Source: Squalus acanthias (lineage: Eukaryota). Taken from it: DNA of 64,000 nt. A program made the translations under genes and the position numbers. Shown here one piece after another: positions 7,955-43,962 of this stretch. The DNA is taken from the NCBI GenBank assembly GCA_030390025.1, contig CM059431.1, forward strand, positions 105,030,001 to 105,094,000, written 5' to 3'. The notes beneath the pieces are model-generated. The model was not told the origin of the DNA and did no database searches. It saw only the letters and a list, made by a program, of their open reading frames with translations. Each line of letters begins with the position of its first letter. Positions within the stretch are counted from its first letter, which is position 1.

Positions 7955-8127
7955 TGATGTGAAGATGCCGGTGTTGGACTGGGGTGGACAAAAGTGAGAA
8001 GTCGCACAATACCAGGTTATAGTCCAACAGTTTTATTTGAAATCTCACCTGACGAAGGGGCAGCCGCTCCGAAAGCTTGTGATTTCAAATAAAACTGTTG
8101 GACTATAACCTGGTGTTGTGCGACTTC
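7955..8127. mobile_element. Penelope-like element (family 1), minimal inverted-pLTR insertion
   Basis: 14-bp TSD TCACAGGTGGGGCA (7941-7954, 8128-8141); ~50-bp inverted arms around one hammerhead; ~39-bp terminal extension. Confidence 0.85.
8045..8082 (+). ncRNA. Minimal type I hammerhead ribozyme (PLE)
   Basis: UCAC-CUGACGA-A-GGGGC/GCUCC stem II-GAAA-GC-UU-GUGA. Confidence 0.75.
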
Positions 8128-9274
8128 TCACAGGTGGGGCAGACGGTGGTTGAAGGGGTCGGTGGGTGGGGTGCTTGGGTTGACGTGCGCGCCTTCCGCT
8201 GTTTGCGCTTGGCTTCCGCTTGCTCCCGACGAAGAGACTCGAGGTGTTCGGCGCCTTCCCGGATGCTTCTCCTCCACTTTGTGCGGCCTTGGGCCAGGGA
8301 TTCCCAGGTGTCGGTGGGGATGTTGCACTTTTTCAAGGAGGCTTTGAGAGTGTCCTTGAAGCATTTCCTCTGCCTACCTGGGGCTCTCTTGCCGTGTCGG
8401 AGCTCCGAGTAGAGCGCTTGTTTTGGGAGTCTCGTATCGGACATGCGGACGATGTGGCCCGTCCATCGGAGCTGATTGAGCGTGGTCAAAGCTTCGATGC
8501 TGGGGATGTTGGCCTGAGTGAGAACATTGATGTTGGTGCGCCTATCCTGCCAATGGATTTGCAGGATCTTGCGGAGGCAGCGTTGGTGGTACCTCTCCAG
8601 TGCTTTGAGGTGCCTGCTGTACATGGTCCATGTCTCTGAAGCATACAGGAGGGCGGGTATCAATACTGCTCTGTAGACCATGAGCTTGGTGCTGCGTTTG
8701 AGGTCCTGGTCTTCAAACATTCTCTTCCTCAGGCGACCAAAGGCTGCACTGGCATACTGAAGGCAGTGTTGGACTTTGTCATCAATGACGACTTGTTGAC
8801 AGTAGGCTCCCGAGGTATGGAAAGTGGTCCACGTTGTCCAAGGCCTCGTCGTGGATTTTGATAATCGGGGGGCAGTACTGTGTGGCGGGGGCAGGTTGGT
8901 AGAGGACCTTTGTCTTACGGATGTTTAGTGGAAGGCCCATGCTCCCGTATGCTTCAGTGAAGGTGTTGACGATGGTTTGGAGTTTGGCCTCAGAGTGTGT
9001 GCAGACGCAAGCGTCGTCTGCATACTGTAATTCGATGACAGAGGATGGGATGACCTTGGATCTGGACTGGAGGCGACGGAGGTTGAACAGTTTCCTGTTT
9101 GTTCTGTAGATTAGCTCCACACCAGCGGGGAGCTTACTGAGGGTGAGATGGAGCATTGCAGCCAGGAAGATCGAGAAGAGCTTTGGTGCGATGACACAGC
9201 CTTGCTTGACCCCGGTCAGTACTTGAATTGGGTCTGTAGTGGATCCGTTGGTCAGGATCCGACCTCCTTATAGT

Positions 9275-9456
9275 GTGTCTCCTTCCAGTGACTGTGTCCC
9301 GCAGTGTCTCCTTCTAGTGAATGTGTCTCACGGTGTCTCCTTCCAGTGACTGTGTCCCGCGGTGTCTCCTTCTAGTGAGTGTGTCTCACGGTGTCTCCTT
9401 CCAGTGAGTGTGTCCCGCGGTGTCTCCTTCCAGTGAGTGTGTCCCGCAGTGTCTCC
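9275..9456. repeat. 29-bp minisatellite, ~6.3 units
   Basis: GTGTCTCCTTCYAGTGAVTGTGTCYCRCR units start at 9275, 9304, 9333, 9362, 9391, 9420, 9449. Confidence 0.95.
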
Positions 9457-10234
9457 ATCTAATAACTTTTTTATTGGCATATCGTCCTCAATATAAACCG
9501 GCAGGTTTAAGAAAGAGACCACCACCTCTTCAGAATTTAGCAGAGAAACCTCCAAGAACTTATCTCCAACCTTCAAACTCAGTAAAAGTCTTTTCACCTC
9601 CTCTCAGCCACTGACCATCACCTTGAACCCAACATTCGGCTTTGGTCGGCAGGCAAAGCAGCTTCGCTCACCGCAGTCCTCATGTACCACCTGGATAATA
9701 TCCCAAGCTCGTATCTCCTTATCTTCACACTGAACCACCACCGTGTTTCCTTTTCCAAACCCCTGGGGTCCCGGCGCAAATCTTTGGGCCTTTTCTTCTC
9801 CCTTCCCCCAACATTTTCTCCCCTGATTAAAATAATTCTGGGAACATTGTCCTCTGAGGGGCCTGGCACTCAGCTGTCCAGCCATCAGGCTGCTGTTTAA
9901 GGACCAAAAAGGCCCTAAAACCTGAAAAAAAACATCACCAACTTTTTACAACCTCACTCCAACCCCCTGCAGTAATCAAGCACCCAGCAGCACCTGCTCA
10001 CTCCTAGCCCCTCCCACCTAGAGAGTGCTACCCACTGAGCCACTGGCTGACACGAGGACAAGAGGTGAAGTATTGGATAGTTGAGAAGTTCCCTGTGGCC
10101 CAGGAAGAGCAGGAGGACCGTTTCCTTCGGTCCAGGGCAGCCGGTAGCAGTGCAATTTTTCATTCCCGTCCACCAGCCTCCACATTATCCCCGCCAGCTT
10201 TGGGCAGGAGTCCGAAATGAGGCCTGATAGTTCG

Positions 10235-10765
10235 CCCTCCTGGGCAGCCTGCCATCTTCCACCCTCCGTAAACTTGAACTAATCCAAACCTCTGCTTACC
10301 GTGTCCTAACTCACACCAAGTCCCATTCACCTATCACCCCTGTGCTTGCTGACCTGCACTGGTTCACAATCCAGAAATGACTCAAATTTAAAATTCTCAC
10401 CCTTGTGTTGAAATCCCTCCATGGCCCTCCCTATCTCTGTAACCTCCTCCAGCCCCTACAATCCTCTGAGATCTCTGCGCTCCTCCAATTCTGGCCTCTT
10501 GCGCATCCCCGATTTTAATCGCTGCACCATTGGGGGGCCGTGCCTTCAGCTGCCTGGGCCCCGAGCTCTGGAATTCCCTCCCTAAGCCTCTCTCTCCTCC
10601 TTTTCGACGCTCCTTAAAACCAACCTCTTTGATCGAGCTTTTGATCACCTGCCCCAATATCTCTTTATGCGGCTCGGTGTCTCATTTTATCTGATGACGC
10701 TCCTGTGAAGCGCCGCGGGACGTTTTGCTACATTAAAGGTGCTATATAAATGCAAGTTGTTGCTG
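10235..10765 (+). mobile_element. L2 LINE 3' fragment
   Basis: LHWL..FKIL-type C-terminus and tail TGTGAAGCGCC...GCTATATAAATGCAAGTTGTTG. Confidence 0.85.
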
Positions 10766-11377
10766 GTAAATTCTCCAGGGACGCACGCTTCGGTTCTCCT
10801 CCCCCCTCACCCCGAATCCCACCTCGAGTTAAAGTCAGGAATGTAGTCACTGTCTCTAAGCAGAGGAGCTCTATAAAATTGACACTTTTAGTATGATTTT
10901 AATGGATGCAATCTGACATTACTTCCCAATAACTGTCACTTAAATTCCACAAGAGAGCCAGTATTTTTAAAATCCTGTTGTTATATAACCCTGACTAGAT
11001 CAATAGATGGAATTATTGCTTTTTTTCAAAATGGTTTAATATATATATTTTTTTGTGTTTACAGCCTTGCCATTTAATATTTACCCCAACTCTGCTCCCA
11101 GCATACAGTACATCAAATTCCTGCCGAGTGCAGCAATCAATACGTCTTGAGCTTTGCTACAAAAGCACCGTGATTGTCACAATATTGCACGCCAGCTGCG
11201 TTTCCATTTACTCTCATCATTAAACAAGGTAAAAGGTTCAGCTGTAGTTGTTAAGTAAAGCAAGGCTGAACGAGAAGGGTGCTACAACTACACCTTTTTT
11301 TTTTCTCCATGAGATTAGCTGGTACTCCAAGTCACCTTTGTAAATTTAAAAAGTAATTTCCAGTCTTTCTTAACCGA

Positions 11378-11600
11378 TTCACAGAATCAAGGAATAGCCC
11401 AGCGCAGAAGGAGGCCATTCGGCCCATCGAATCTGCGCCGGCTCTTTCGAAGAGCTGTCCAGTTAGCCCCACTCCCCCCCACTCTCTCCCCATATCCCTG
11501 CAATTTTGTCTCCTTCAAGTATTTATCCAATTCCCTTTTGAAGGCTGCCATTGAATCTGCCTCCACCGCCCTTTCTGGCAGCGCATTCCAGATCCAAAGC
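11378..11600 (-). mobile_element. CR1 LINE 3' fragment
   Basis: WIWNALPERAVEADS...FKRELDKYL plus CR1 3' UTR. Confidence 0.85.
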
Positions 11601-12028
11601 ATTCTTTTCTGAAAAGAAACTGGAAGCTTTGCAGCTTCTTTGACATGTTTGCTCCTGGTCCTGGACCCATTTTCCAGCCACCATTTTCTTTTTCTTGGAT
11701 ATTTGCTGGGAGGGCGGGGGGGGGGGGGGGGGAGGGGAGGTGGGGGGAGGTAGGGGGGTCGGTTAAAAGAAGTAACCATGGCAACAGTTGGAGGTGGCGA
11801 ATGAGGTGAAGTTCTGATCTGGTGGCAATGACAATCTGGTGTCAGGACATAGCAGTCACGAGGCTAAACTGGTGGTGGGACAATTGCAGTTTGTAGTGAA
11901 TAAATCAGTGTCTAAACTTGTGGCACAACAGTGCCAATCTCATTTGGTGACGATGTCATGACAATATTTGTTGAATAAATAAATGGTCGGATTTGTTCCA
12001 ACTTCAGTCGGGCTGGGGATCAGTATTG

Positions 12029-12275
12029 AGCTGTGGCTCAGTGGGCAGCACTCTCGCCTCTGAGTCAGAAGGTTGTGGGTTCAAAGTCCCACTCCAGGAG
12101 ACTTGTGCACAAAAATCTAGGCTGACACTCCCAGTGCAGTACTGAGGGAGCGCCGCACTGTCGGAGGTGCCGGCTTTTGGATGAGACGTTAAACATGTTT
12201 ATTATACTGGTGCGCTTCTCAAAAGAAAATCTTTTACATCCACCTGAGAGGGCAGACGGGGCCTCGGTTTAACAC
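12029..12275 (+). mobile_element. Deu-SINE 5' half, followed by a short inverted SINE fragment
   Basis: tRNA head and Deu start 12029-12194; reverse-oriented core piece ~12227-12273. Confidence 0.75.
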
Positions 12276-13799
12276 CTCCACAACAACTTGCATTTATACA
12301 GCCTGTTTAATGTAGAAAAATGTCCTCATCTGAAAGACAGATTTAGTTGCAAAACTAGGTTGATTTAGTGGAAGAAACAATTCCCCGGTTACAACTTTAA
12401 CAATAGCCAGGTTAGAATTATGTTTCAAGCTTGTTTGCTATTGTTTGAACTCATTGTCAAAGCAGATATTTGCCTTAGATGAGTCTTAAGGTTAAGGTTA
12501 TGCTTCTAGTATTTAAAATACATCTCACCGCAGGGAAAGTAATCCTCCGTCTGATGAAAATATTTTACTGGATAGTAGTTTGGGAAGCATTACTATGTCA
12601 AGAGATGGCTATCAGCCATGCCAACCACTTCTGCAACTAAACCATTCAAGAGGCTGAATAACAAATATAATTCTTTACAGAAGCACATAGCGAAATACTA
12701 AATAGTGCAAAAAGGTCTAGAAACAGTAATCAAGGGGTTAATCCAACCAGTCAGGCAGACTCCTTTGAGAGGTGACAGACTTTGGGACAGAATTAGTCTC
12801 GGAAAAAAAAGTATGTAATGTTGTTCATGAGAGCAGAAACAGAATGCAATCTTCTTAATGATGTAAGTGCAAGTTTACAAGGCTTCATTCCATACGGTGC
12901 CCCCCACGGCAAAACACACCTAACTGCTAACAAGCAAAATTTGCTGTCTCTTATACTCATGAGGGGCAAGTTCCTGAATTGGCGCTGCTGGTCAGGAATT
13001 TGTGCATATGTAAAGGGTCCAACACCTGTTTCGGGCGTGGGCACTGCACGCCAATTTTTTGGCCTTTACCAATATGGCGGGCGGCACACTTGCAGTTCAC
13101 AGCGAGCATGTGCTACCTGCCCGCCATATTGGAGGCTGTTTAGTGCCCGAAAAACTGGTGCAGCGTGGCTGAATTTCTAGGCCGCTGAGCTTGAATTAGC
13201 TCATCGCTTGGAGACGAGCACTGGCCAGAGGTAACTGCAATTGAGCTTCTCTTAGCGGCCATACAATCCACTTTGTAGGCAGGGCAGAGAGGGACTGACA
13301 GGTAGATTCAGGAATTAGAGAGAAAATTCAGGGTTTCCGAAATGTGATGATCTGGGCTGTACAGATTCCCAGGCAAGGAGAACATGTACATCTGATCCAT
13401 GGCCTCTGATAATGCAGCTCTATAACTAGTGACCACCAGGAGAACAAAAAATGGCCCCAGGTAACTCTCCCCTCTCACATTCCAGTCCCTAATCTATGAG
13501 GAAACATCGATTCTCACTTCTACACAGCCAAGATTGGTAACACACCACAGTATATAACTCAAGGTAACAGTTGACTGGAACTCCAATTAAGCCATTGCCT
13601 GTTTACCATTGTTATTAATTTGGGCTATTGACACTTTAAATTATTTGTTAAATTAAGGATATTTCTGCCGACTTTCAAAAATACAAAAAATGTTTTAGGA
13701 AGAGCTTGTACATTTTCAAATGCTCCAAAACGTTTGTGTTTTACAAAATATGACAGACTTGTATTTCTGTCACGCTCTGATTTACTGAACACACTGCAT

Positions 13800-15072
13800 C
13801 TTTGAAACCCTTGGGATTGAAGGGGCAGTGGCTGTGTGGATGAGTAATTGGCTAGGGGACAGAGAGCAGAGAGCAGTGGAGAGAATGGCCCTGAATTTCC
13901 GATCGGAGGCTCCCTGCGGGCGGATGCCTCCGATCAGCAAAAAATCTACGAACCTGCCAGCTGGTCCCGGAGGTACGGAGGTTTCCGATCTTGACCCTCT
14001 CCTCTTGGAAATGTGCAGAGGCCCGTGTATCCCGGGGGCGCAGGCGGTTCGCAAGCTCCCCTGGGATCACGTGGGCCAGGCAAACCAATGGAAGAAGGGA
14101 ATCCCCCTTCATACTTTTGACAGTACCGTACGCACAGACCTGTCAAAAGTATGAATGGGGATAACTACAAAAATGCACCAACACACTGAAATAAATAAAT
14201 AAAAACCATTACATACATAAAATTAATTAAAATGGCATTTAATTAAATATGTTAAACAAAAATTTAATTTTTTTAATATGTTTTAACGAGGCTTAATATA
14301 ACCTTACCTTATTGGACAGGGTTTTTAATTTATAAGTGAGTGATAAAATCTTATTTTACTATTTTTTTAAATCTTATGCTGGTAAAAGCAGGCCTTACTA
14401 CTGCTTTTACCAGGCGTAAGAATTCTATGGCCTTTCAGCGGGTGGACGTTGGGCAAATAGCGCAACTCTCCACCCGCAGAGGCCCTTTTCTTTGGCATGT
14501 GGAGGATCTGTCAAGAGAATTCTCGACAGATCGCAAGTTCCGGGTTTCAGCGCATGCGCTACGCGTGCCTAAACCCGGAACTTGCGCAGGCCTCTACGGG
14601 CGCGTGCGCACCTCGTACGCACCCGTGGGGGTCGGCAAATATGGGCCATTATGTTTTTCAGACTGAAGTGTGCCTTGGTGTCCCCCAGGGGTCAGTGTTG
14701 GGACAACTGCTCTTTTTGATTTATATTAATAACCTGGACTTGGATGTACAGGGCAGAATGTCAAAGTGTGCAGGTGACACGAAACTCGGAAATGTAGTGA
14801 ACAGTGAGGAGGATAGTAACAGACTTCAGGAGGACAGACTGTAAAGTGGGCAGACATATGGCAGTGAAATTTAATGCAGAGAAGTGTGAAGTGAATCATT
14901 TTGGTAAGAAGTATGTGGAGAGCCAATATAAACTAAATGGTACAATTTGAAAGGAGGTACAGGAACAGAGAGACCTGGGGATATATGTACACAAGTCTTT
15001 GAAGGTGTCAGGACAAGTTGAGAAGGCTGTTAAAAAGGCATGCGGGATTCTTGGCTTTATAATTGGAGGCAT
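13800..15072 (+). mobile_element. CR1 LINE RT fragment split by MITE A1
   Basis: W..NWL.DR.QR before the MITE; GVPQGSVLGQLLFLIYIN.L and degenerate FADD region after. Confidence 0.85.
13887..14647 (+). mobile_element. Harbinger-type MITE family A, copy 1
   Basis: GGCCC...GGGCC termini, AAT/ATT flanks, GC-rich ends and AT-rich core; homologous to 32959, 34169 and 43488 copies. Confidence 0.8.
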
Positions 15073-16690: not shown

Positions 16691-16810
16691 GACCCACAGC
16701 AATGTGGTTCACTCTTAACTACCCTCTGAAAGCCACCATCTTCTCAAGGGCAATTAGGGATGGGCAATAAATGCTGGCCTTGCTGGCGACATTTGCTTTT
16801 TTTTAAGCGA

Positions 16811-17470: not shown

Positions 17471-18372
17471 ATCTGATGTAGTCCCCGTCCCGTGAATGAA
17501 TTTTAAAAAAATTGATTACTGTAGTTTACCACAGATTTCCAGAATATGACATATGTGTAGCAGAAAAGTAAACTTTTAAAAAAAATGAAAGTTCCACCAT
17601 TCAAAATTACTTTTATGTGTGGACAGGGGAAAGGTGAAACAGCTTGTAATCGCAGATAGTCTTGAAGACATTTCCTTTTCAGTAGCAGAGTCGGGGAGTC
17701 AGAGTTTACTATATATATATATAGCGCTGATCTTCGTTGCTTGACTGATCTCTCCCAGTTCCTCATGTTATGATTAAGTGAAATCTGATGCCAGTTGCAG
17801 ACTTCACCACCATGACTGAACAAAATCCACATTTTCTTTGATCGATCTGCGCTACTAAAAGGTATTTTTAACATCAATTGATTGTGAGCCCTACAGGCTT
17901 ACGCTAAAGCCCTGGCTAATTAGCAAGCTCCTACGCCAGAGGCTCTACATCAAACTGGAGTTGCACTGCCTAACTTGTAGACGGGGAGAGAGAGATGAAG
18001 CACAAAAACCTCCAGCTCCGCAAAATCTTCACGGCTTCAGTCTTTTCGCACACAACGCATTGGATAAGAGCACGAAAACGTTCCGGCGTCTTGTGTGCAC
18101 AGCTATGTCTTGAGGCAAACTCTTGCATTTGCTTGCAGCAATTGTCCACCTGCCATAACAGAGGAGCTGGTACATGGGAGCAGAAATGGATATGATGGTG
18201 ACTTGATACTCTATCATACTGCCCAACATCTCAGGTAGATCCAGTAGCCTTGTAAAGACCAAACTAGTCCCAGAAAAAAAGTGCACGTCTCCTGTATAAA
18301 TGAGCTACAATTCATATAGAATAGTGAGAAGTCGCACAACACCAGGCTATAGTTCAACAGCTTTATTTGAAA

Positions 18373-18409
18373 TCACAAGCTTTCGGAGCGCTGCTCCTTC
18401 GTCAGGTGA
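18373..18409 (-). ncRNA. Minimal hammerhead ribozyme (PLE)
   Basis: UCAC CUGACGA A GGAGC AGC GCUCC GAAA GC UU GUGA on minus strand. Confidence 0.8.
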
Positions 18410-18741
18410 AGTGAAGAGATACATATGGGCACAGCATATATAGTCAGAGAACACTGCCAGATGATTACAGTTAATCTTTCTAACTGCCCTTTATCACACC
18501 TCGGCAGAGAGATAATCACGGCAATCAAAGGTGTGGATGGTGTCCAGACAGGTCAGTCAGGAAAACATTACATCAAAGACCATGAGGTGGGGTCACAAGG
18601 GGTCAAATGCGGCAGATGCTGGGGTCTGTATGGAAAACAAAAAACTTTTTTTGCTGGAAATCACAGCAGGTCCAGCCGCATCTGTGTAGAGAGAACAAGC
18701 CAACGACGACTCGAGTCTGGATGACTCTACGTCAGGTGGGG

Positions 18742-18861
18742 TTACATGTAGCGTGACATGAACCCAAGATCCCGGTTGAGACCGTCCTCATTGGCGCAGA
18801 ACTTGGCTATCAGTTTCTGCGCGACGATTTTGCGTTGTCGTGTGTCTCGAAGGCCGCCTTC
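18742..18861 (-). pseudogene. PLE ORF C-terminus (end of GIY-YIG endonuclease domain)
   Basis: EGGLRDTRQRKIVAQKLIAKFCANEDGLNRDLGFMSRYM*; the GLN.D motif is typical of PLE endonuclease ends. Confidence 0.8.
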
Positions 18862-18870
18862 ACCTTGACT

Positions 18871-18907
18871 TCACCTGACGAAGGAGCAGCGCTCCGAAAG
18901 CTTGTGA
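18871..18907 (+). ncRNA. Minimal hammerhead ribozyme (PLE)
   Basis: UCAC CUGACGA A GGAGC AGC GCUCC GAAA GC UU GUGA. Confidence 0.8.
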
Positions 18908-19914
18908 TTTCAAATAAAGCCGTTGGACTATAACCTGGTGTTGTGCGACTTCTCACATTTGTCCACCCCAGTCCAATACCGGCATCTCCACATCATGGCA
19001 TATAGAATAGAATCACAGATTGCGACTGCACATCAAGTCCACATAAGTGCCGTTCTCCACATGAGCTAATTATTCCATTTCTACTCTCCCCTTCACTCTA
19101 CATATTAATTTATTATCATGCAACTAATTCCCTTGTAAAGATTTATGGACTCTCCTTCAGCAATGGTTTGTGGCAGAGAAGTCCAAATTCTAGCCACTCT
19201 CTCTATAAAGACATTTTTACTAACTTCCCCATTAATTCTTTCTTGTCATTATCTTAAATGTGTGCCTTCATTTTATCATCTCACAGACCAGTGGAGAGAA
19301 TCTATCACTATTTGCCCAATTATAACTTTTAATAATCTTGAAGACATCTGTCAGGTTTCTGTACAATATTATATGAAATATGTACATGTGTATGAGCTTA
19401 TACAGTGTTTGTGCCATGTACAATCAACTGCTATGGCTCCTCTGGTATCATAAATTGTGTGCTGAAATTGATTTTTAAATTTTGGTTATTTATTTGTGAT
19501 GTATTATTAAATCTGATCTATACTATTAATTTAGAAAATTCAATCCTTTTCATTTGTCATCTGCAGCATACCTATCCTTTAAGGTTAATGATAATACTGA
19601 CCTTATTGAGGCTGCATTTTCATCTCAACACTTGCATTCATTTCCCATTTTGTCTGGACTCAACCACCAGTATTTTCATGTGCTGTTGGATTGAATTTTC
19701 TCAGTTCTGTTGAATAAAGTCTGTTGAGGTGAGTTGAGTGCGTATTAACTCTGTCCTAATTTGTATTGTAATAGGAGCAAAAAATAATTCAGATCTTAGT
19801 TGGCAAAACTGAATCTACTGCCTCCAAAGCAGTAAACCACTGCCTCTTAATTAAAAGTCATTTGCATGAGGGAGTATGTTTACAAAGAATTTGTGGATTC
19901 TTTTGATACAGCCC

Positions 19915-23130: not shown

Positions 23131-23163
23131 ATAGTTTGTCAGCATGGTGTTTTTCCACATAAT

Positions 23164-23906
23164 GGCCCAGAAATTAAACACTGAGCGTTCCTGCGGGGGT
23201 AAGGCTTCCCCGCGATATCTCACTACGCGCCTACCTGTTCCCTCCGGGCCCACACAAACTTTAGTTTCAAGGCTGCAGCTGTGCAGTGCTTGCGTGACCC
23301 ACAGATGCAGTTAGTTCGTGCGAGCTCTGGGATCACGTGATTCAGTTAGAGCCAATGGCAGCACACCATCTTTCATTCATAGTTTTGACAGGAGAACTGT
23401 CAAAGCTATGAATACAACTTACCCCCAAAAGAACAGCTAAACCTCAATTAAATTTTTTTAAAACCCATCACATTAATAAAATAAGTATAGTTAAATAAAT
23501 TAACCACTTTAAACAAAAATTTAAATTTTTGAAAAAGTTTAAAATCTTTTTAAAAGTTATAAAAATAAACTTACCTTTCTTTAAAGTCTCTAAAAAAGAT
23601 AAACCTGTTGAAAAAAATTTAAAATAATACTTAATTAACTACTTACCTTGTTAAAAGAGGGTCTTATGCCTCCTTTCTTTATGTGTAAAATCTTCCATGC
23701 TTACCTGCGCGTTCAAAGCACTAAGTGCACTGCGTGCGCGCAGCCTGTAGCGCGCACGCGGTTCACTTAGGAACCGCCCCCTTTTGAATTCACGAAGTGC
23801 CGGTTTCCCGCGCATGCGCAGTGCATGCTGGAAACCGGCAATTGGAGACCTAAAACGCGAGAGTACACAGTGCGTACTCTCGCGTATTAGGTCTAATTTT
23901 CGGGCC
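23164..23906 (+). mobile_element. Harbinger-type MITE family B, copy 1
   Basis: TIR GGCCCAGAAATT/AATTTTCGGGCC; AAT/ATT flanks; homologous to 44098 and 58339 copies. Confidence 0.85.
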
Positions 23907-24082
23907 ATTGTAACAGGCAGGAGAGTGCAGTGGGCATCCTGTATATCCTCCTAGTCTGTAACTCAAGAAAGGGTAATCATTAGTTGTTCAACATGCTAAC
24001 CCATTCATTCCATGCATAAGGATGTGTGGACCTGCCCATAGATACATAGACCAACAGCAACATTATATGTTTTATAACATTA

Positions 24083-27583: not shown

Positions 27584-28995
27584 GTTTTACAAGTAGGCTA
27601 CTATCAGAGAGGATGAGGAGGCACCTGCCACATTTTTCCACATGGCTAGGAGAAAGAAGCAGGGAGATGGAGTGGAGAGGTAAGGATGGGGTGTTTAATG
27701 GGGTGACCTGGGATAGGGGTTGGATGTAGGCGAGTATCTGTTGAGGTAACTTTTGTGAAAGTGATGTTCCAGTTGGTCTGTTGACTAAAAATTATCAAGT
27801 GTGAAGTATCAAAGTGCTCAAAATTTTCAAGGGAGCATTTCCCAGACCTCTTGTAAATGCAGCAGACAATTTTTAATTTAATTTTTGTGTTTCCATCGTC
27901 AGGATTTCATGTACTTATGCTTTTTTTAAAACCATCCAATACAAGTGAAGGGATGGAGAGGAGGAGAGGCGAAAACTGAGGGGGCAAAGGCCAGGTGCTT
28001 CTTATTATCATTCTCTTGTCCATATTCTGGCTTGCACAGTTACAACCTATATTTTAATGCAGTGAATCGTGCCAATGTGTCGGCCAATGAGTTTGAGGTG
28101 GAGCGGTACTTATGGTTTTAAATTTACTCATGAACTGCGGCAAACAGAGTCTCCCAAGTAAGACAGGATTATCTCCAGCAAAATGCAGTGAGCGAAGGAT
28201 AGTTACATAATACAAATTGTGTGCGTAAAATCAACCCCAGTCACTCACAGCAGTGCAGTCTCCAGGCGTGACTGACGGGGGAATTACACTATCATCTCCG
28301 TTCTGGCCGGGTGTCACTGCATGGGAGAATTATGATGAATTTATTTGACCACTAACCTATTTTAAGACTGTGACATTCCTGAATATTAATTCCCTACCTA
28401 ACACCAGCATGGGGACACAATTGCGCCCCATCACTCCCTCCTCAGGGGAACTAAGGACAGGCAATAGAATGTGGCCTTCCCAGCATTGTCCTCATACTGA
28501 GAAAAAAAGACACAATTTGTTGTATGTCTGTTTGAAATCAGTGCTGCTTATATCAAATTTTGCAACTAATTCTAATAATTGTGATACAAATAAAATATAT
28601 AATACTTGCATTTATGTCGCAACTCAGCAGGAGTATTGTGGAGATTTCTGGGCACCACACTTCAGGAAAGATGTAAGGGCCTCAGAAAGGGTGCAGAGGA
28701 GGTTTACCAGGATGTTACCAGGGATCAGGGACTTCAGTAATGAGGAGAGGTTGGAAAAGTTCAGAATGTTCTCCCTGGAACAGAGAAGGTTAAGAGGCGA
28801 CCTGATAGAGGTTTTCAAGATGATGAGAGGTTTCGATAGAGTAGAGAGAGAAAGACTATTCCCCCTGGCGAGTGGGTCAATAACCAGAGATCACAGATTC
28901 AAAATCATTGGTAAAAAGATCTAGAGGGGAATGAGGAGAAGTCTTTTCACTCAGAGAGATGTCAGGATCTGGAACGCTTGACCTGAAAAGGTGGT

Positions 28996-29230
28996 CATGA
29001 TATGGAGATGCCGGTGTTGGACTGGGGTGGACAAAAGTGAGAAGTCGCACAACACCAGGTTATAGTCCAACAGCTTTATTTGAAATCACAAGCTTTCGGA
29101 GCGCTGCTCCTTCGTCAGGTGAAGTGAAGTGATGCATATAGGCAGAGCATATATAGTCAGAGAACTCCCCTCTAGATCTTTCAAATAAAGCTGTTGGACT
29201 ATAACCTGGTGTTGTGCGACTTCTCACATT
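28996..29230. mobile_element. Penelope-like element (family 1) with partial inverted pLTR
   Basis: TSD TGAAAAG(G/C)TGGT at 28984-28995 and 29231-29242; ~50-bp inverted terminal arm. Confidence 0.85.
29086..29122 (-). ncRNA. Minimal hammerhead ribozyme (PLE)
   Basis: Identical to the motif at 18373-18409. Confidence 0.8.
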
Positions 29231-29703
29231 TGAAAAGCTGGTGGAAGCTGATTCCATCAATAATTTTAAAAGGGAGTTGGACAGGTTCTGGAGGATGAGG
29301 AGCTCACAGGGTTACGGACAAAAAGCGGGGATGTGGGACTAAGCACGACGGCTCTTTCAAAGAGCCAGCACAGGCACGACGGGCCGAATGGCCTCCTCCT
29401 GTGCTATAAGTTTCTATGATTCTATAACTTTATCACACTGAAACTTCTCAATACATCTCATACAGTTATTACTTTGAAGTGCAGTTACAGCTTTATGTCG
29501 CCAAATGATTCAACCATTCAGCACCAGCAACGTCTCACAGCAGCCAGGAGGTGAACTACCACAGTTAATCTGTGGTACTGGTTCAGAGGGAAACACAAGC
29601 CAGGAAACCAGGAGAATTCGCTAATCTTCTTCAAATAGTGCCATGGATTCTTTAACAACTTCCTGTATCACCAGAATTGGCAGATGAGGACATTCAGCTT
29701 AAT

Positions 29704-32958: not shown

Positions 32959-33808
32959 GGCCCAACATTTGCGTTTGGAGGCTTCCCACGACCGGACGCC
33001 TCCGGCCTATAAAATATCTACGCATTTACCTGGTGGCCCGGGAGATACGGAGACTGGCGATCCTGGGTCTCTCCGGGTATGCGCGGGCAGAGTCCCACGT
33101 GTCCCAGGGGCGCATGCGGTTCGCAATCACCCCTGGGATCATGTGGGCCGGCCCAATGTGGGCCGGCCTGATGAAAGGTCTTCGACCTGAAACGTTAACT
33201 CTGTTTCTCTCTCCACGGATGCTGCCTGGCCTGCTGAGTTTTTCCAGCGTTTTCTGTCGTTATTTTGGATTTCCAGCATCCGCAGTATTTTGCTATCGTA
33301 ATAAAAGAAGGGAATCCCCATTCATACTTATGGGAGATCCGTACGTACAGAATCCCCAGAAGTGTGAATGGGGATCACATTAAAAATACACCAACACATG
33401 AAATACATATTTTTTTAATTTCATATTTAAAAGTAATTAAAATGCCATTTAATTAAATATTTTAAACAATAATTTAACTTTTTGGAAAAAAAAATATGTT
33501 TTAACGGGGCTAAAAATAAACTTACTTTATTGGACAGGGTTTTTAATGTATAAATGAGTGATAACATTTCATTTTTCTATTTTTTAAAACTCTTATGCTG
33601 GTAAAAGCAGGCATAAGAATAGTGCAACTCTCCACCCGCAGAGGCCCATCTCTCGGTGATGCGGAGGATCTATCAAGAGGATTTTTGACAGATCGCAAGT
33701 GTCAGGTTTCAGCTCGTGCGCTTCGCATGCCTAAACCCGGAACTTGTGCGGCCCCTATGGGCGCGTACACACCTCGTACGCACCCGTGGGGGTCGGAAAA
33801 TACGGCCC
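32959..33808 (+). mobile_element. MITE family A, copy 2, carrying a PLE family 2 fragment at 33168-33297
   Basis: ATT/ATT TSD; homology to A1; insert begins at CTGATGA of the hammerhead. Confidence 0.85.
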
Positions 33809-34861: not shown

Positions 34862-34969
34862 ATTAATACAAAGTATTTACACAAAAATACCCTCTTATTT
34901 ACAGAGATAGGTAACTTGATCAGCAAGTGCCAACACTGGTAACTATTTATTAATAGAATGCCTTCGTAG

Positions 34970-35138: not shown

Positions 35139-35632
35139 CTTCTTAGGTTTTTCATTTTGTTTTTACTGGAAGCCTTTCTCGTGTTTCCATTTGCAGGGTT
35201 TGTCCGCACAGTCCAGCAGGAACCGTGGTAGGAAAAGAAGTAACGTAGATTAAGGGAACTGCTCTTACTATGCCCAACACATCCCTTTAGAGACAGATTG
35301 CAGGTCTGATATTTCAGTGAAGGGATTCCAGTTTCTGACAGGTGTCAAACAATATTTATTAGATATTGATGAAAAACAAAACACGCGACATAACCTAGCC
35401 CCCAAAATCTCCTCCAAATTCCCAAACTGCTCAGAAAATATTGCCTGGAAATTCTGTGAGTGATGTTGCCATACAAATACTCATTTCAAATTCCTCTCTG
35501 TGCTACTTTCACACAGGCATTAATTTGTTTATACAAACAGTAACATCGCCACCATCACAGAAATTTAAATCACTGCTGAGTGTCCTACTCCACTGAACGC
35601 TGCTGTAAGGATTCTACAGTGAATTGATACCA

Positions 35633-38600
35633 GAACTGTGAGGTTATAACAATCAGGGCAGACTGAACAGGCTGGGGCTCTTTTCTCTAGAATCATAGCA
35701 TCATAGAATGGTTACAGCACAGAAGGAGGCCATTCGGCCCGTTGAGCCCATGCCAGCTCTCTGCAAGAGCACTTCAGCTAGTCCCACTTCCCCCGCCCTT
35801 TCCCCGTAGCCCTGCAAAAAAATTTCCTTCAGTTACTTATCCAACTCCCTTTTGAAAGCCACGATTGAGTCTGCCTCCACCACCCTTTCAGGCAGTGCAT
35901 TCCAGATCATAACCATTCGCTGCGTAAAGAATTCTGTGGTAGAGAATTCCACAGGTTCACCACTCTCTGGGTGAAGAAATTCTTCCTCATTTCTGTCCTA
36001 AATGGCTTACCCCTTATCCTTAGATTATGACCCCTGGTTCTGGACTCTCCGACCATCGGGTCTGGATGTTCTTGCCATGGAAGGAGTTCAGTGAAGATTC
36101 ACAAGGCTGATACCTGGGATGGCAGGAATGACATATGAGGAGAGATTGGGTCGATTGGGCTTATACTCGCTGGAGTATGGAAGAATGAGAGGGGATCTCA
36201 TTGAAACATATAAAATTCTGACAGGTCTGGACAAACTAGATGCAGGAAGAATGTTCCCGATAGTCGGAGAGTCCAGAACCAGGGGTCATAATCTAAGGAT
36301 AAGGGGTAAGCCATTTAGGACAGAAATGAGGAAGAATTTCTTCACCCAGAGAGTGGTGAACCTGTGGAATTCTCTACCACAGAAGGTAGTTGAGGTCAAA
36401 TCATTAAATATATTCAAGAATGAGTTAGATATATTTCTTAAAGCTAAAGGTATCAAGGGATATGGGGAGAAGGCAGGTACAGGGTACTGAGTTTGGATGA
36501 TCAGCCATGATCTTGTCGAATGGTGGAGCAGGCTCGAGGGGCCGAATGGCCTACTCCTGCTCCTATCTTCTATGTTTCTATGTTTCTATGTCTAAAAAAG
36601 GTTTTCCTCATGTCACCGTTGGTTCTTTTGCCAATCACCTTAAATCTGTGTCCTCTGGTTCTCGACCCTTCCGCCAAAAGAGAAGGCTGAGAGATGACCT
36701 GATAGGGGTCTTTAAAATTATGAAGGGGCTCGATAGGATAGATGTAGAGAAGATGGGCTGGATTTTCAATGACCCGTGGAGTCGGGTTTCGAGGCAGCGG
36801 GGGGGGGGGGGGGGTTAAAGTTGCAGATTCGGGGGTCCCGACCCCATCCCGACTCCAACCCGCCTCCATGCCAGTTTCTCTGGCGGCGGGTACTCGACCT
36901 GTTCTGAGACCCGACTCCCCGAGGCGGGAAGGGATTAGTGACAATTAACTGCCTGTTAACAGACAGTTTTTTGCATAATCTCTATTTTAAAAAGAAAACT
37001 GTGGGCTTCCCGACAGGTGGCAACCACTCCAAGTTATCGGGGCGGGCCGTGGGTCTGCAGGGGTTGGAGGGGTCGATATGTCCGGTAGGCAGGTGAGTGA
37101 TGGGTGCATGTGTGCAGAGGTAAGTGTGTAAGGTAAGTGCTAAGTGTTGAAAAAAGTTTTACTTACCTTAACTTCCTCCTGCAGGTGTCAGCCCTTCAGT
37201 TCTCGGGAGTTAGAAATCTCACCCGCACAGAAAGCAGGAAAGCCGTGGTTCTGTCAAAAACTGCAACCTTCTGTTTTCTGTGCTGGAATGATTTCTAACT
37301 CAGCCTGAGAGGAAGGACTGAAGTTAGAAATCATATTGTGAGTGTTTGACAGCTTTACAGAGCTGTCAAACGCTGATATTTCATCTGTCAAAAGCTCTTG
37401 ACAGATGAAATGTCAATCTGTGACATCACCTGTTGCTGGGTGGCCCTTAATTGGCCTGCTGAGCCCACTGGGCGGGCTCAACAAGGTCAATCAAGGGAAA
37501 ATACAGTGGGTTGGCCACATCTCGATGGAGGCGGGTTTACAAGCCAGAATGTGTGATTCCCGACCCCAGCCCGACTCCAACTTCAAAATCCAGCCCAATG
37601 TTTCCACTTGTAGTGGAGTCCAAAACTAAGGGTCATAAATATTATATAGTCACTGATAAATTCAGTAGGGTATTCGGGAGAAACCTCTTCACTCAGAGAG
37701 TGTTGAGAATGTGGAACTCGCTACCACGTGGAATAGTTGAGGCGAATAGCATAGATGCATTTAAGGGCAAGCTAGATTAGTACATGAGGGAGAAAGGAAT
37801 AGAAGGACATAAGAACATAAGAACATAAGAAATAGGAGCAGGAGTAGGCCAATCGGCCCCTCGAGCCTGCTCCACCATTCAATAAGATCATGGCTGATCT
37901 GATCCTAACCTCAAATCTAAAGAACACAAGAAGTAGGAGCAGGACCCGGCCACTCAGCCCCTGGGCCCGCTCCGCCACCCACAGGGCCATGACCGATCCG
38001 AACTCAGCCTCATGTCCAATTTCCTGCCCGCTCCCCGTAACCCCTAATTCCATTTACTTCTAGGAAACTGTCTATTTCTGTTTTAAATTTATTAATGATG
38101 TAGCTTCCACAGCTTCCTGGGGCAGCAAATTCCACAGACCTACTACCCTCTGAGTGAAGAAGTTTCTCCTCATCTCAGTTTGAAAGAGCAGCCCCTCATT
38201 CTAAGATTATGCCCCCTAGTTCTAGTTTCACCCATCCTTGGGAACATCCTTACTGCATCCACCCGATCAAGCCCCTTCACAATCTTATATGTTTCAATAA
38301 GATCACCTCTCATTCTTCTGAACTCCAATGAGTAGAGTCCCAATCTACTCAACCTCTCCTCATATGCCCACCCCCTCATCCCCGGGATTAACCGAGTGAA
38401 CCTTCTTTGTACTGCCTCGAGAGCAAGTATGTCTTTTCTTAAGTATGGACACCAAAACTGTATGCAGTATTCCAGGTGCGGTCTCACCAATACCTTATAT
38501 AACTGCAGTAATACCTCCCTGTTTTTATAATCTATCCCCCTAGCAATAATGTTGATGGGGTGAGTTGAAGGAGGGTGGGAGGAGGCTCGTGTGGAGCATA

Positions 38601-38668
38601 AACACCGGCACAGACCTGCTGGACTGAATGGCCTGTTTCTGTGCTGTAAATTCTATGTCATTCAATGT
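35633..38668. mobile_element. Nested CR1 cluster: outer + strand CR1 (35633-35690, 36677-36754, 37597-37807, 38549-38668) containing further CR1 copies and a MITE
   Basis: Outer CR1 reads through the junctions; inner CR1s at 35690-35928 plus 36592-36675 (-), 36061-36591 (+), 37808-38548 (-). Confidence 0.8.
36755..37596. mobile_element. Harbinger-type MITE (family D)
   Basis: Perfect 12-bp TIR GGGCTGGATTTT/AAAATCCAGCCC; GAT/AAT 3-bp flanks inside a CR1. Confidence 0.85.
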
Positions 38669-39426
38669 AGGTTATATATAACTGAGATACTTGGAAAAAA
38701 TGGAAGAGGCATCAAAATGAACTGGACTGGAGAGATGCTCCACAGTTTAAGACCACAGTGGCAGCACTTATCCAGTCGCCTGCCCTTTAATAAGTTTGTC
38801 AGAAAATGTGGTTTGCCATCAACAATTTGTTTTAGACAGAAGAATCTGAAAAAAGTAATTTTGTTTATATCCAAAGTTCACATCTCTTGATCCTGACAAA
38901 AATGTGCCTGAATATCAAGCAATAATCTACTTCAAATAAAAACAAGAAAATTCATGAATATATTACAGGAATGTACCGCTCATTTTCCTGCACATTTTCC
39001 TCGACCTAGAGTCAGAATCTTTAATGTTGGTCATCTTTTTCCATAGGTGTGATTTGTTTCTCTATTCTCTTAGTCCCTGTCTGCAGGAAATGCCACAGCT
39101 CGATACAATATAAAGACGCTGCCGCACACTGGTGATGTCCTTCAGGTCAAATATCATAACAAGTGTTTGCATTCATCTGTCCAGTGTCACCTCACGCCTC
39201 AGTTGTGTGCAAGAGAAGACACTGAATGAGCAATGGCACAACATGCCGACACCGCACCCCAAGGACATTGCCTTGACTCATTGCTGCTCATACACTGCTC
39301 ACTGACAGCCTGCATGTCACAGCTAACTGGCAGCACCAGTAACAACCGCAAGTAACAAACTTTCACTTTTTTTTTGGAACATGAAATGGTGTTAAAGTAG
39401 ATTTAAACTGAAATAATAAATACCTG

Positions 39427-39838
39427 GGGGGGGGAAATTCGGTGGCTACTTTTAGCACCCCGAAAAAGTTAGCGCCCCTGTGCCGTAAATTCGATGGTAG
39501 CGCCCCAAGCTGACCGGTCGCGGCCGGCACCCCGCATAAAAAAGCGGAAGGTGCTGGCAGGCAGCCAAAAAAAAAGGCTGCGGCCTCGAAAACGCCGCCC
39601 TGACCCTGTCGGACATACCGTCTGGCGGCAGGTCAGGGGGCACGAGCCAAGTTTGCGGCCGGGGCACGAGCGGGGCGCTGCGCACGGCAATGACATTATC
39701 GCCGGAGGCACGGCACCACGGGGCGCTACCGGCTCCTGCCACCGCTAACCTCCCGCTGGATTACACAGGAGCCATTAGCGGTGCCGCGCCCGGGCGCTGG
39801 GGCTAACGGGAGGCGCAAAGCAACCCAATTTTTCCCCC
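39427..39838 (+). mobile_element. Harbinger family C MITE (short)
   Basis: GGGG..AAATT/AATTTTTCCCCC ends; CTG/CTG TSD; right end matches 49040-49070; related to 63088-63753. Confidence 0.8.
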
Positions 39839-40812
39839 CTGGGAGTTGGGAAAGTCTGCGACTCTACCACATTCATGCATTGCTCCAAGGGTTTGTGATA
39901 GCATCAGGACCCCTCAATTGAATTATGGCTTTAGGGTTCCTTCTCAGGTACATGCGCTTCTATACCTCACAGCTTATGTTCCTCCAAATCTGTTCAGTGT
40001 ATCGCAGTTGAGTGTAATTATATGGGAGAAGAATCTCGAAGCAAATTCATGTGCACTAAAATGGCTCCCGATTTGGACAAATTTCTCCACATGACTTGTT
40101 AGACTGTATTTTAATTTGGCAAGACTGTGCCTGAAAGATTGAGACTGGGTAGTTTCTTTTGATTTTATGCATCAGATCCTCAAGGGAAAGTATATCTTGT
40201 AAAAAAAAAATTCTGTTCCTCTTACTCTAAGTTAAGAACCGTACAGTGCCTGAAGAAACTGAATTTTTGAACAAAAGCTTTGGACTGGAATAACCTCAAT
40301 AGGCTCGTCCTTTAAAGTTTGGATATAGTTTAGGAGATACCAATTTCAGTTGAGCAACAACGGATGTCCAATTGTGCGATCTTGCCAAACAGAGGACATC
40401 TAAAGGATAACATCGAGGGGCTCTTTACACCAGCTTGCCTATGTTTTTAATCTCAATTGCCAATCTCCTCCCCTTCTCCTCTCGTGCTGGAGTACGGTTC
40501 CACAATAGGCAGTCACCCTCTGGTATCTTGGCCAAGGGCCATTCTTCACAGGTGAGCCGAGATGTTGATTGCCTGCAAGCTATTCCACTGTGAAGAGTAG
40601 CATGACAAGTGCAACCTTGTTAACACCCCTAATTCCTCAGCTGTGCACTTGTGAACCATGGTTGCTGGATAGTGATCAAGAGCCGAATCTCGTGCTGATT
40701 TTCCCCTCCCTAGCCCGAGAGTGTTAAGACCAATGGTAATGCTGTACTGTCACAAAGAAAGAAATGAGAAGTCGCACAACACCAGGTTATAGTCCAACAG
40801 ATTTATTTAATG

Positions 40813-40850
40813 TTACAAGCTTTCGGAGCTATCGCTCCTTCGTCAGGTAA
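40813..40850 (-). ncRNA. Minimal hammerhead ribozyme (PLE)
   Basis: UUAC CUGACGA A GGAGC GAUA GCUCC GAAA GC UU GUAA. Confidence 0.8.
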
Positions 40851-41383
40851 GTTAGCAATGAGAGAATCTCCCAGAATTCACAATTTAAACCCAGACAAAA
40901 TCTATTCACATTATTCGCTACAACAAAGAGCACAGCCAAGACAATGAGATGTGTCCCAGGGGGTCCAACGTGTCAAACCACCTGCTGGCTGCATATCCTG
41001 TCAATTTGTGTTCTTGTGTTAGCCTTTTAAAAAAAAAAAAAAAAAAAAAACCCAAAAAAAAACACCTGGGAAGACCGGCCATGATGTCAAGTCACGTTCT
41101 GTATCGTGACATGAACCTCCGTATGTATCGATACAGAACGTGACTTGACATCATGGCCGGTCTTCCCAGGTGTTTTTTTTTGGGTTTTTTTTTTGGTTTT
41201 TTTTTAAAAGGCTAACACAAGAACACAAATTGACAGGATATGCAGCCAGCAGGTGGTTTGACACGTTGGACCCCCTGGGACACATCTCATTGTCTTGGCT
41301 GTGCTCTTTGTTGTAGCGAATAATGTGAATAGATTTTGTCTGGGTTTAAATTGTGAATTCTGGGAGATTCTCTCATTGCTAAC

Positions 41384-41421
41384 TTACCTGACGAAGGAGC
41401 GATAGCTCCGAAAGCTTGTAA
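41384..41421 (+). ncRNA. Minimal hammerhead ribozyme (PLE)
   Basis: UUAC CUGACGA A GGAGC GAUA GCUCC GAAA GC UU GUAA. Confidence 0.8.
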
Positions 41422-41509
41422 CATTAAATAAATCTGTTGGACTATAACCTGGTGTTGTGCGACTTCTCATTTTTGTCCACCCCAGTCCAACGCCGGCATC
41501 TCCACATCA

Positions 41510-41607
41510 CAAAGAAAGAAGACAAAGACAGAGACAGAAAGAGACAGAGACAGAGACAGAGAAAGAGATAGAGAAAGAGATAAAGAAAGAAAGAAAAGGA
41601 AAGAGGG
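41510..41607. repeat. GA-rich simple repeat (expanded SINE tail)
   Basis: (GAAA)/(GACAGA) runs abutting the SINE 3' end. Confidence 0.8.
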
Positions 41608-42060
41608 AACTTTCATTTACAAATCACCTTTCATGACTTCAGGACGTATCAAATTGCTTCAGAGCCAATGAAGTACTTTTGAAGTGTCGTCAATGTTGTA
41701 ACGCAGGAAGTGTGGCAGCCAATTTGTGTACAGCAAGATCCCACAAACAGCAATGAGATAATTGATCAGATAATCTGTTTTAATGAAGTGGGTTGAGGCA
41801 TAAATATTGCCAGAGCACCGAGATAGCTTCTCTGCTCTTCTTCTAATAGTGCCATGGAATCTTCTACATCCCCTTGAGAGGGCTGTTGTTGCCTTGGTTT
41901 AACGTTTCATCTGTAAGACAGCACCTCCGACAGTACGGCATTCACTCGGTCCTGCACTGAAGTGTCAGCCTGGATGATGTGCTCAAGTCCTGCAGTGGGG
42001 CTTGGACACACAACCTTCTGACTCAGAGGTGAGAGTGCTGCCCACTGAGCCACGACTGAC
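41608..42060 (-). mobile_element. Deu-SINE, full length, older
   Basis: tRNA head at ~41990-42060, Deu core and tail. Confidence 0.85.
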
Positions 42061-43925
42061 AATATAACAGAATATAGGGAAAACCATCAGCATCTCCCTT
42101 ATTTTCGGATAAATCCTATGATTTGTAGGACTGACAAGGAACAGAGAGAGATACACTGGTTGAGAAGTAATACAAGGCAGATTTTGCAGAAAGGAACTGC
42201 TCAGAGTTGGATAGACAGGGTTGTAAAATTGTAAAGTTGTAATACGCTGCAGTTTCACTAGATTTCCTTTGGAAGTAAGGGAAAAATGTAAGAGCTTTAA
42301 CTTTTTGGATGTTTATCATAGTCTCTACTCAATCATGATGACTGCCTCTTCATAATGGAAAAAATACATTCATGACTTGTGGAAAGAATGAGCTTGGTAG
42401 GCCGAGTGACCTTTACTCAATGGTTTTATTCTTGATACTTGAGTAATTTCATTGTTAAATACTCATTGTCATCTTTTTTTCAACAAGTAGGAGTTGGTGG
42501 CAAAGGTGACACATTGGGAGATGGTGAATGGGGGGAGGGTGGGGGAGGGAGGAGGGACCCATCATGAAGGTGAGGGCAGGCAGGCCATCACCAATGCATA
42601 AGAGACCGAATGATCACCCTGCAAAAACTTAAGCAATCCATTCTCTCTCTAGAAGTCTTCAGGATAAAGCGTCAGGGCAACAGATGCATCCAGCTACAGC
42701 CACAGATAAGATGGATAACGGAGGGCTGAAGGACATACCAAAAGGGTATGCAGAAATGGGTCAGTTGTAATGGGGGAATAGCGAGGGGTCTGAAGGGGCA
42801 ACAACACAAGGGTAAACACGAACGGGGAAAGGGTCACAATGAGGGAAGTGCAAAGAGCTGATGTGTGATGCAGGAACGGTAAGGAATAGCGAGTTGAGGG
42901 AGACTGAGCAAAGTGAGAGAGGATGCACCAATGTGCACGTGTGTATGTGTGTGTGTGGGGGGGGGGGAAGAGTTGTACAGATACCTCAAGAATGGGGAGC
43001 ATTCAACAACTCTGGAAAAACATCACAAAGAGGCCAAGGGGTTTAAGAAGGGCAGTGGAGAACAACAGAAGTGCTCCACAGCAGAATTAGCAAGTACAGT
43101 CAGGAAATAGTAAGTGCAGCAGGACAGGGCAAAAAAGAACAACAGGGAATAGCAAACTCTAGAGAAACAGAATGGGAGAAGGAGAGGAACAGTGGCATAG
43201 GGAGCACATAGAAAGTAAACACAAAGGAAAACATTATGCAGGACAACAAATAAGACAAGCGCTACACACCATATGCTTCCTCCTACCCACAAAAAGAAGA
43301 AAAACATGAAAAAAAGGATAAAGGAAGACAAAGAGGGACAGAAGCAAAATAACAGAGACACAAATGCAAAATAAACAGAAAGCGACAGACAGAACCACAG
43401 GAAGACACAGTGACTCCACCAGGAATATGAGGACAACAAACATAGTTAAGGCCCAGAGCTAATCCTGCAACTTACTGCAAACAAATTGGGCCGTATTTTG
43501 CGATCCCTACGGGTGCGTACGAGGTGTGTACATGTCCATAGGGGCCGCACAAGTTCCGGGTTTAGGCATGTGAAGCACATACGCTAAAACGCGGAACTTG
43601 CGATCTGTCAAGAATCTTCTTGACAGATCCTCGGCATCCCCGGGCGGTGACCCTCTGCGGGCGGAGAGTTGCTCTATTTGCCCAATTTCTGCTCGCTGAA
43701 TGCCCGTGAAATTCTTATGCCTGGTAAGGCCTGCTTTTACCAGCATAAGAGTTTTAAAAAATAGAAAAATAAAATGTTATCACTCATTTATACATTAAAA
43801 ACCCTGTCCAATAAGGAAAGTTTATTGCAAAAAGAAAATCCTGCAGATGCTGGAAATCTGAAATAAAAACAGAAAATGCTGGAGATACTCAGCAGGTCGG
43901 GCAGCATCCGTGAAGAGAGAAACAG

Positions 43926-43962
43926 AGTTAACGTTTCAGGTTGATGACCTTTCGTCAGAACT
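43926..43962 (-). ncRNA. Minimal hammerhead ribozyme (PLE family 2)
   Basis: AGUU CUGACGA A AGGU CAUCA ACCU GAAA CG UU AACU. Confidence 0.7.

Follow-up and report, generated by a model that had tools for sequence, protein, structure and literature searches.

Minimal hammerhead motifs in truncated Penelope-like element ends at a Squalus acanthias locus

A stretch of 64,000 nucleotides from the shark Squalus acanthias (GCA_030390025.1, contig CM059431.1, positions 105,030,001 to 105,094,000 of the forward strand; hereafter the window) contains seven motifs that an initial annotation took for hammerhead ribozymes of Penelope-like elements (PLEs). The locus raises the questions of how so many such motifs came to lie together and whether they cut the host RNAs that cross them. 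The motifs are real minimal type-I hammerheads in truncated PLE ends, of the kind described in 2014. On our reading, in which we have considerable confidence, they sit in 5'-truncated PLE ends, four two-armed insertions placed six of the seven, and they are likely to work only in the RNA of an active parent element, the dispersed copies being silent passengers. The evidence for this reading and the alternatives to it are discussed below.

Motifs and the insertions that carry them

Both strands of the window were scanned for CUGANGA, and the whole window was then searched with a structural descriptor (CUGANGA, an optional bulge, stem II of at least 4 bp, GAAA-NN-UH with NN self-complementary, and stem I of at least 4 bp). 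The search returned seven full and nine core-only matches; 300 dinucleotide shuffles gave no full match and a mean of 0.03 core matches. The full matches are exactly the seven motifs first annotated, all of whose coordinates and strands were matched. We name them by position C3 of their CUGA: 8049 (+), 18405 (-), 18875 (+), 29118 (-), 40846 (-), 41388 (+), and 43958 (-). Four damaged copies, reported at about 1705, 18700-18735, 33168, and 62241, are also present, the last two among the core-only matches and those near 1705 and at 18700-18739 recognisable in alignments. Rfam, run over the whole window with E up to 1, gave five weak unrelated matches and no hammerhead family. The isolated motifs fold little better than shuffles (z -0.3 to -2.6), as is expected of 37-nt motifs without stem III. 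An exact search with a 24-nt family-A motif found no stretch in metagenome contigs and none in viral contigs.

The core CUGANGA...GAAA...UH and stems I and II are present in all seven motifs, which fall into two families, A and B. Loop III is absent, and the palindromic 15.2/16.2 pair, GC in family A and CG in family B, could allow a dimer to form; it is lost in the copy at 62241. Of the palindromes AAGCUU and AACGUU described as stem III, only AGCU or ACGU belongs to that stem under standard hammerhead numbering, with A14 and U17 unpaired. Stem II was given as GGAGC/GCUCC; at 8049 it reads GGGGC/GCUCC with one G-U pair. It was also given as AGGU/ACCU, but in the three family-B copies other than 43958 it has 5 bp and a 3-nt loop; 43958 has therefore already lost its fifth pair. 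The compensatory stem I pair UUAC/GUAA is present but records a single event, since 40846 and 41388 share one insertion, being the two arms of one inverted duplication and 98% identical.

The six family-A motifs sit in four insertions, at 7953-8132, 18324-18997, 28996-29232, and 40762-41509 (insertions 1 to 4; Table 1). Each has two inverted arms pointing outward, one short-ended and one with a tail of about 40 nt, the arms ending about 82-85 nt (short) or 122-123 nt (long) after C3. An inverted truncated copy, a tail on one end, and a target duplication occur together in all four, the adjoining direct repeats being, in order, 14, 12, 12, and 14 bp long. Direct repeats of 12-15 bp abut five of the eight insertions tested, with scores of 14, 12, 9, 14, and 12; among 400 random pairs, one scored at least 12 and three at least 9. 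For insertion 2 there is an empty site: in a contig of a related organism (organism B), 18312 is followed at once by 18999, the match extending over 190 letters to either side and one repeat copy being left, and both hammerheads of this insertion therefore arrived in one event. The presence of insertion 2 in a second individual is only suggested, by two X5 contigs that touch its junctions with only 26-28 element letters (the bar being 31). Loose ends at the tail end of the element (18996-18997) are found in 59 and 53 contigs of X5, and many contigs leave the element there for unlike, AT-rich sequence; the element therefore has a sharp 3' end. Insertion 1 interrupts an RTE-like long interspersed nuclear element (LINE). 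Copies on the same strand are more than 10 kb apart and close pairs are inverted, unlike the head-to-tail tandem units, each with a hammerhead, of a retrozyme.

All five two-armed insertions, four of family A and one of family B, pair a short with a long end, an outcome with a probability of 0.03 if ends were picked independently at even odds. The pairing would fit coordinated use of two reverse transcriptase (RT) start sites on two nicks. We infer such coordinated priming from five insertions, a small sample; the point is of use to PLE specialists.

These features suggest how the insertions may have formed. Published PLE biochemistry implies that the GIY-YIG endonuclease of the element would make a staggered cut 12-15 bp apart. 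RT would then prime at the two nicks, with start points some 82 and some 123 nt beyond C3 (in family B, some 100 and 131 nt), and both complementary DNAs would stop early and be joined head to head. Since the hammerhead would lie just upstream of the start sites, even inserts of 100 nt would still carry it, and this adjacency would account for the density of the motifs. In the tandem RNA of the parent, the AGCU or ACGU palindrome may bring two copies together, probably aided by the protein of the element, for a slow cut after CUU or GUU. The fold would have been kept by selection in the master elements, and copies would decay after insertion.

Family assignment and conservation of the fold

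Insertion 2 contains the last 38 codons of a Neptune-type PLE open reading frame (ORF), the end of its GIY-YIG endonuclease, at 18745..18858 (-). This ORF end matches residues 597-643 of protein P0002 (E 2e-15, 85% identical), and is 85-87% identical to Heptranchias perlo proteins, the closest named ones. P0002 carries an RVT_1 (RT) domain, a C-x4-C-xx-C linker, and a GIY-YIG end with C/C/H/H residues, the linker and residues being identified by eye following the published definition (PMC8557442). Pfam returned no GIY-YIG match for P0002, and its comparison with solved structures no match. The combination of RT with a C-terminal GIY-YIG endonuclease bearing CCHH is thus found for family A through its relative P0002, the window holding 38 codons only; the CX2-5CxxC linker between RT and endonuclease, a Neptune/Nematis-type feature, is present in P0002. 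Judged by the linker and endonuclease motifs of P0002, family A is a Neptune/Nematis-type PLE. A few codons of the same ORF end lie at the centre of the 40762-41509 palindrome. Subfamily A2 has a different untranslated region (UTR) from A1 after the same ORF end. The annotation of the motifs as minimal type-I hammerheads of PLE terminal repeats, in two families, is borne out by their anatomy and, for family A, also by this protein. Two H. perlo host-gene models, P0001 and P0010 (a Ku80 isoform and a kinase-domain gene), include family-A PLE ORF sequence, which may reflect exonisation or annotation error.

Family B is assigned to the PLEs by its anatomy only. All four of its copies are damaged, and an inverted arm, a tail, and a target duplication occur together in one of the four (62162-62340). 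In the copy at 33168 the insert starts at C3 and so has no 5' strand of stem I; it lies in a miniature inverted-repeat transposable element (MITE) whose paralogue at 49199-49507 is empty of the insert. A duplicated upstream piece of family B, at 1317-1378 and 1538-1598, flanks another repeat at 1392-1525. A 770-bp repeat family with internal palindromes (44094-44865, 23163-23907, and 58336-59084) is also present, and one of its copies splits the upstream part of the family-B copy 43958.

The motifs resemble the minimal hammerheads described in metazoan PLEs, such as fish Xena, Poseidon, and Neptune (Cervera and De la Pena, 2014; PMC4209133). They share the type-I layout with a 4-bp stem I, an unpaired base between positions 9 and 10.1, G10.1-C11.1 (in family A), the palindromic 15.2/16.2 without loop III, a preponderance of solitary truncated copies, opposite-strand pairs 100-700 bp apart, and several covarying families per genome. 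They differ from the Schistosoma families, whose stem II is 7-8 bp, in having a stem II of 5 bp, and family B departs further in that its first stem II pair is A-U or G-U. In two supplementary files of that paper, neither a shark term nor any of the present palindromes was found. Inverted truncated copies with a tail on one end are a hallmark of PLEs, and canonical endonuclease-bearing (EN+) PLE insertions have inverted arms and a short target duplication, as here (Craig et al., 2021, PMC8557442; Arkhipova et al., 2013, PMC3846280). The tail on one arm is about 40 nt in family A and about 31 nt in family B, compared to 30-40 bp in canonical EN+ PLEs, and the target duplications are 12-15 bp, compared to 8-10 bp in rotifer PLEs (PMC8557442, PMC3846280). 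The window has no full-length or tandem copy. In Poseidon of the lizard Anolis carolinensis, both strands are cut and extended, RT starts at two sites that define the tail, the hammerhead lies shortly upstream of them, and the flanks at the tail end are AT-rich (Frangieh et al., 2024; PMC11167929). The present insertions share this layout, although family A is Neptune-type and has the CX2-5CxxC linker; moreover, neither strand of the anole element preferred a start site, whereas here five of five insertions are short-plus-long. Retrozymes that lack long terminal repeats (non-LTR retrozymes) also place type-I hammerheads, related to PLE ends, in animal repeats, but as canonical motifs in head-to-tail tandems, while those of the window are minimal, dispersed, and inverted (PMC7229834; 10.64898/2026.07.22.740005).

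Nine aligned motifs (six distinct rows, three lineages) pair in 92% of cells, and eight of eleven stem pairs change on both sides. The resulting score of 0.739 is reached by none of 500 shuffles, the structure having been derived from these same sequences. The covariation lies almost wholly between families A and B; within a family, both sides of a pair change only once, at a stem I pair that distinguishes A1 from A2, and the two A2 copies derive from a single event. The masters thus maintained the fold through their history, and the covariation between families points to selection on the fold in active master elements. The earlier inference that conserved structure implies selection for self-cleavage is supported to that extent; selection on the genomic copies is not shown by it. 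In the four A1 motifs, 148 nt hold 2 changes, where the flanks, with 10 in 393 nt, would predict 3.8 (P=0.27), and one of the two is a loop variant common in the family. By this comparison the copies appear intact because they are young. The initial picture of seven independent intact ribozymes is not supported: the count overstates their independence, the seven motifs amounting to five insertions, and their intactness is no greater than youth predicts.

Selection on the catalytic core can be gauged against a natural control in the 3' UTR of A1, a second detail of use to PLE specialists. Directly after the ORF stop in insertion 2 is a dead hammerhead, enclosed in a B-like terminal-repeat fragment that is 73% identical to family B over 93 nt and bounded by 13-bp repeats (18585-18597 and 18734-18746, one mismatch). 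Contigs bridge the fragment (18598-18733) to the ORF end and to the UTR, some gapped by 12-15 nt somewhere in 18709-18773, and in organisms A and B the whole arm is covered at a depth four to five orders greater than that of the flank, indicating a very high copy number. No core-restoring variant of the dead hammerhead is among the variants listed, a listing that leaves out 37 further rows. The dead core is not damage private to the copy in insertion 2; it is carried in the 3' UTR of high-copy A1 in two organisms. An old insertion into an A1 master, since copied as a passenger, is the likely history. Positions 9, 14, and 15.1, which have changed, are important in the hammerhead core. The captured core has drifted about as far as its flank has diverged from B (three of about 13 positions, compared to 27%), and the element's own hammerhead, 330 nt further on, has stayed whole. 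An intramolecular heterodimer of the dead and live A1 hammerheads was considered and rejected, as the palindromes mismatch (A with B, -0.2 kcal/mol) and the dead copy has an altered core. A titles-level search outside subscription papers and Repbase found no account of the nested dead hammerhead or of these shark families.

Cleavage, template use and the fate of dispersed copies

Selection in the masters may have kept the fold for a role unrelated to cutting, for instance in RNA dimerisation, in binding a protein, or as a splicing signal, with cleavage incidental. We regard this as unlikely, although it survives best among the alternatives. Catalytic mutants of the anole element left insertion in vitro unaffected (PMC11167929), and A2 has the same 33 nt up to the short end as the A1 majority, whereas loop II and one stem I pair of the hammerhead differ between them. 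Splice-acceptor-like motifs, a pyrimidine tract followed by CAG, flank the hammerhead in both families (18959-18972 (+), 43860-43880 (-), and 43962-43975 (-)). They lie about 65-70 nt after the cut in both, in B also just before stem I, and in A they are followed by ATG at the tail end. PLE introns exist. In the runs guessed to be RNA, however, no GT..AG joint and no spliced form using these motifs was seen among the 15 of 148 joints listed. The core letters are also invariant across families that differ at 8 of 11 stem pairs, and the passenger hammerhead lost three core letters in the same RNA in which the element's own was kept; both observations weigh against this alternative.

If the cleaved RNA were the regular template, inverted arms would end at the cut and the insertions would record cleavage in vivo. 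One arm in each of insertions 1 and 3, two of the eight family-A arms, starts 2-4 nt after the predicted cut, and the deepest X5 joint listed and the joint for both RNA-guessed runs start at cut+1 and cut+2. The X5 joint has four letters that fit either side, however, and no pile-up of arm ends at the cut was seen in the 14 arm-to-arm joints listed (among 15 of 148 joints), where 3 of 28 ends fall at +28 to +32 and about 2 are expected from an even spread over -14 to +49. Regular use of cleaved template is thus improbable.

The initial annotation also proposed that the dispersed copies could cut host pre-mRNAs, a suggestion for which we found no support. Active copies would cut transcripts crossing the region after pairing in trans with PLE RNA or with help from PLE protein. 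The core and stems are complete in seven copies, stem II persists at 8049 and 29118 when long flanks are included, and stem III strands could pair in trans like-with-like (-4.9 and -4.1 kcal/mol). The anole hammerhead cuts once the element's protein is added (PMC11167929), and tandem retrozymes are reported to be rarer than expected in Xenopus introns and exons (2026 preprint 10.64898/2026.07.22.740005). Against this, no host exon was recognised by Pfam among 195 open frames of at least 78 codons and one short fragment, the matches being to mobile-element domains, a zinc knuckle, and, weakly, one simple-repeat frame. Partition functions over 650 nt on either side give stems I and II a probability of 0.00 at 18405, 18875, 40846, and 41388. 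In read-through RNA, the prediction for these four of the seven is complete pairing with the antisense arm of the same insertion, and on either strand that arm is transcribed before the sense hammerhead. Compatible partners sharing a strand are at the nearest 10.7-22.5 kb apart, and 43958 has none. Single minimal motifs are described as uncleaved and dimers as weak (PMC4209133; dimers were also studied by Lunse et al., 2016, according to the review PMC6765202), and the anole data, as given in PMC11167929, contain no RNA reads starting or stopping at the cut. Unconstrained co-folding of two monomers gave no active dimer, an uninformative result, as the model ignores tertiary contacts. The unique flanks of 18100-19250 have no coverage in the two RNA-guessed runs, which do cover the repeat; this blank has no bearing on expression. 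Cutting of host RNA by the dispersed copies is in our judgement very improbable. We find it equally hard to credit that they are half-ribozymes acting as conditional cut sites, in which case the unburied 8049 and 29118 would be completed in trans by abundant PLE RNA or its protein and cut host transcripts when the element is expressed, fold-back insertions would be tolerated as self-silencing, and A1 would have lost its captured core to stay mobile. Cutting of host RNA, if true, would matter much more than the present finding, a shark example of a known association and of modest value as it stands, but nothing here shows it.

Chance matches or assembly artefacts in the form of false fold-backs, to which the weak folding of isolated motifs and the silence of Rfam might point, are refuted by the absence of full matches in the shuffles, the target duplications, the site found empty in another organism, and the differences between arms in sequence and end position.

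Some observations weigh against our preferred reading of the motifs as PLE passengers that are silent where they lie. Three motifs are not buried, with stem II probabilities of about 0.95 at 8049 and 29118 and about 0.49 at 43958, and the folding of 1.3-kb RNAs at equilibrium is no more than a model. The exon screen covered frames of at least 78 codons, and the region could still be intronic. The test of youth, with four copies, is low in power. No ORF fragment was found beside any family-B copy in the window, and three of the four copies of this family are single-armed, with no target duplication above chance (scores 5-7). The two family-A arms that start close to the predicted cut belong here as well.

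Feature coordinates and surrounding repeats

Table 1. Hammerhead motifs, element arms, and target duplications in the window (A1 and A2, subfamilies of family A; B, family B; HH, hammerhead).
Feature	Position	Strand	Basis or remark
Minimal HH, A1, short arm (8045-8132) of insertion 1	8045..8082	+	descriptor, arm alignment
Inverted long tailed arm of insertion 1, no core	7953..8044	-	starts ~2 nt beyond predicted cut
Target duplication of insertion 1, 14 bp	7941-7954 / 8128-8141		direct repeats
Short-ended arm of insertion 2: PLE ORF end, dead HH, 3' UTR, A1 HH	18324..18860	-	
Minimal HH, A1, short-ended arm of insertion 2	18373..18409	-	descriptor
Minimal HH, A1, long tailed arm (18864-18997) of insertion 2	18871..18907	+	descriptor
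Target duplication of insertion 2, 12 bp	18313-18324 / 18999-19010		direct repeats
B-like terminal-repeat fragment nested in A1 3' UTR	18598..18733	-	136 bp, alignment
Dead HH	18700..18739	-	stem II kept (5 bp); core positions 9, 14, 15.1 changed
Minimal HH, A1, long arm (28996-29165) of insertion 3	29086..29122	-	descriptor
Inverted short arm of insertion 3	29179..29232	+	starts ~4 nt beyond predicted cut
Target duplication of insertion 3, 12 bp, one mismatch	28984-28995 / 29231-29242		direct repeats
Minimal HH, A2, short arm of insertion 4	40813..40850	-	descriptor
Minimal HH, A2, long arm of insertion 4 (40762-41509)	41384..41421	+	descriptor
Target duplication of insertion 4, 14 bp	40750-40763 / 41507-41520		direct repeats
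Family-B fragment	1601..1834	+	deletion near 1700-1708 took stem I 5' strand and core start
Family-B fragment inside MITE	33168..33300	+	starts at C3, without stem I 5' strand
Minimal HH, B, in repeat fragment 43828-44077	43926..43962	-	fifth stem II pair broken
Family-B two-armed insertion	62162..62340		tailed arm 62162-62223 (-), short arm (+)
Family-B HH, stem III palindrome lost	62237-62273		within 62162-62340 insertion
Family-B target duplication, 15 bp, one mismatch	62145-62159 / 62337-62351		direct repeats

The window is repeat-rich, with LINE reverse-transcriptase fragments and a Harbinger transposase accompanied by a Myb-type ORF. The Harbinger-type element comprises a Myb/SANT ORF at 45172-45900 (+) and an open DDE_Tnp_4 transposase frame of 451 codons at 47402-48754 (-). 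An inverted repeat of 129 nt (35932-36060 and 36256-36384), 99% complementary and without a hammerhead, lies in a LINE 3' fragment, and a 29-bp minisatellite of about eight units occupies 9246-9477. An open frame at 7160-7618 (-) encodes a CCHC zinc knuckle and is possibly a fragment of a retroelement ORF1.

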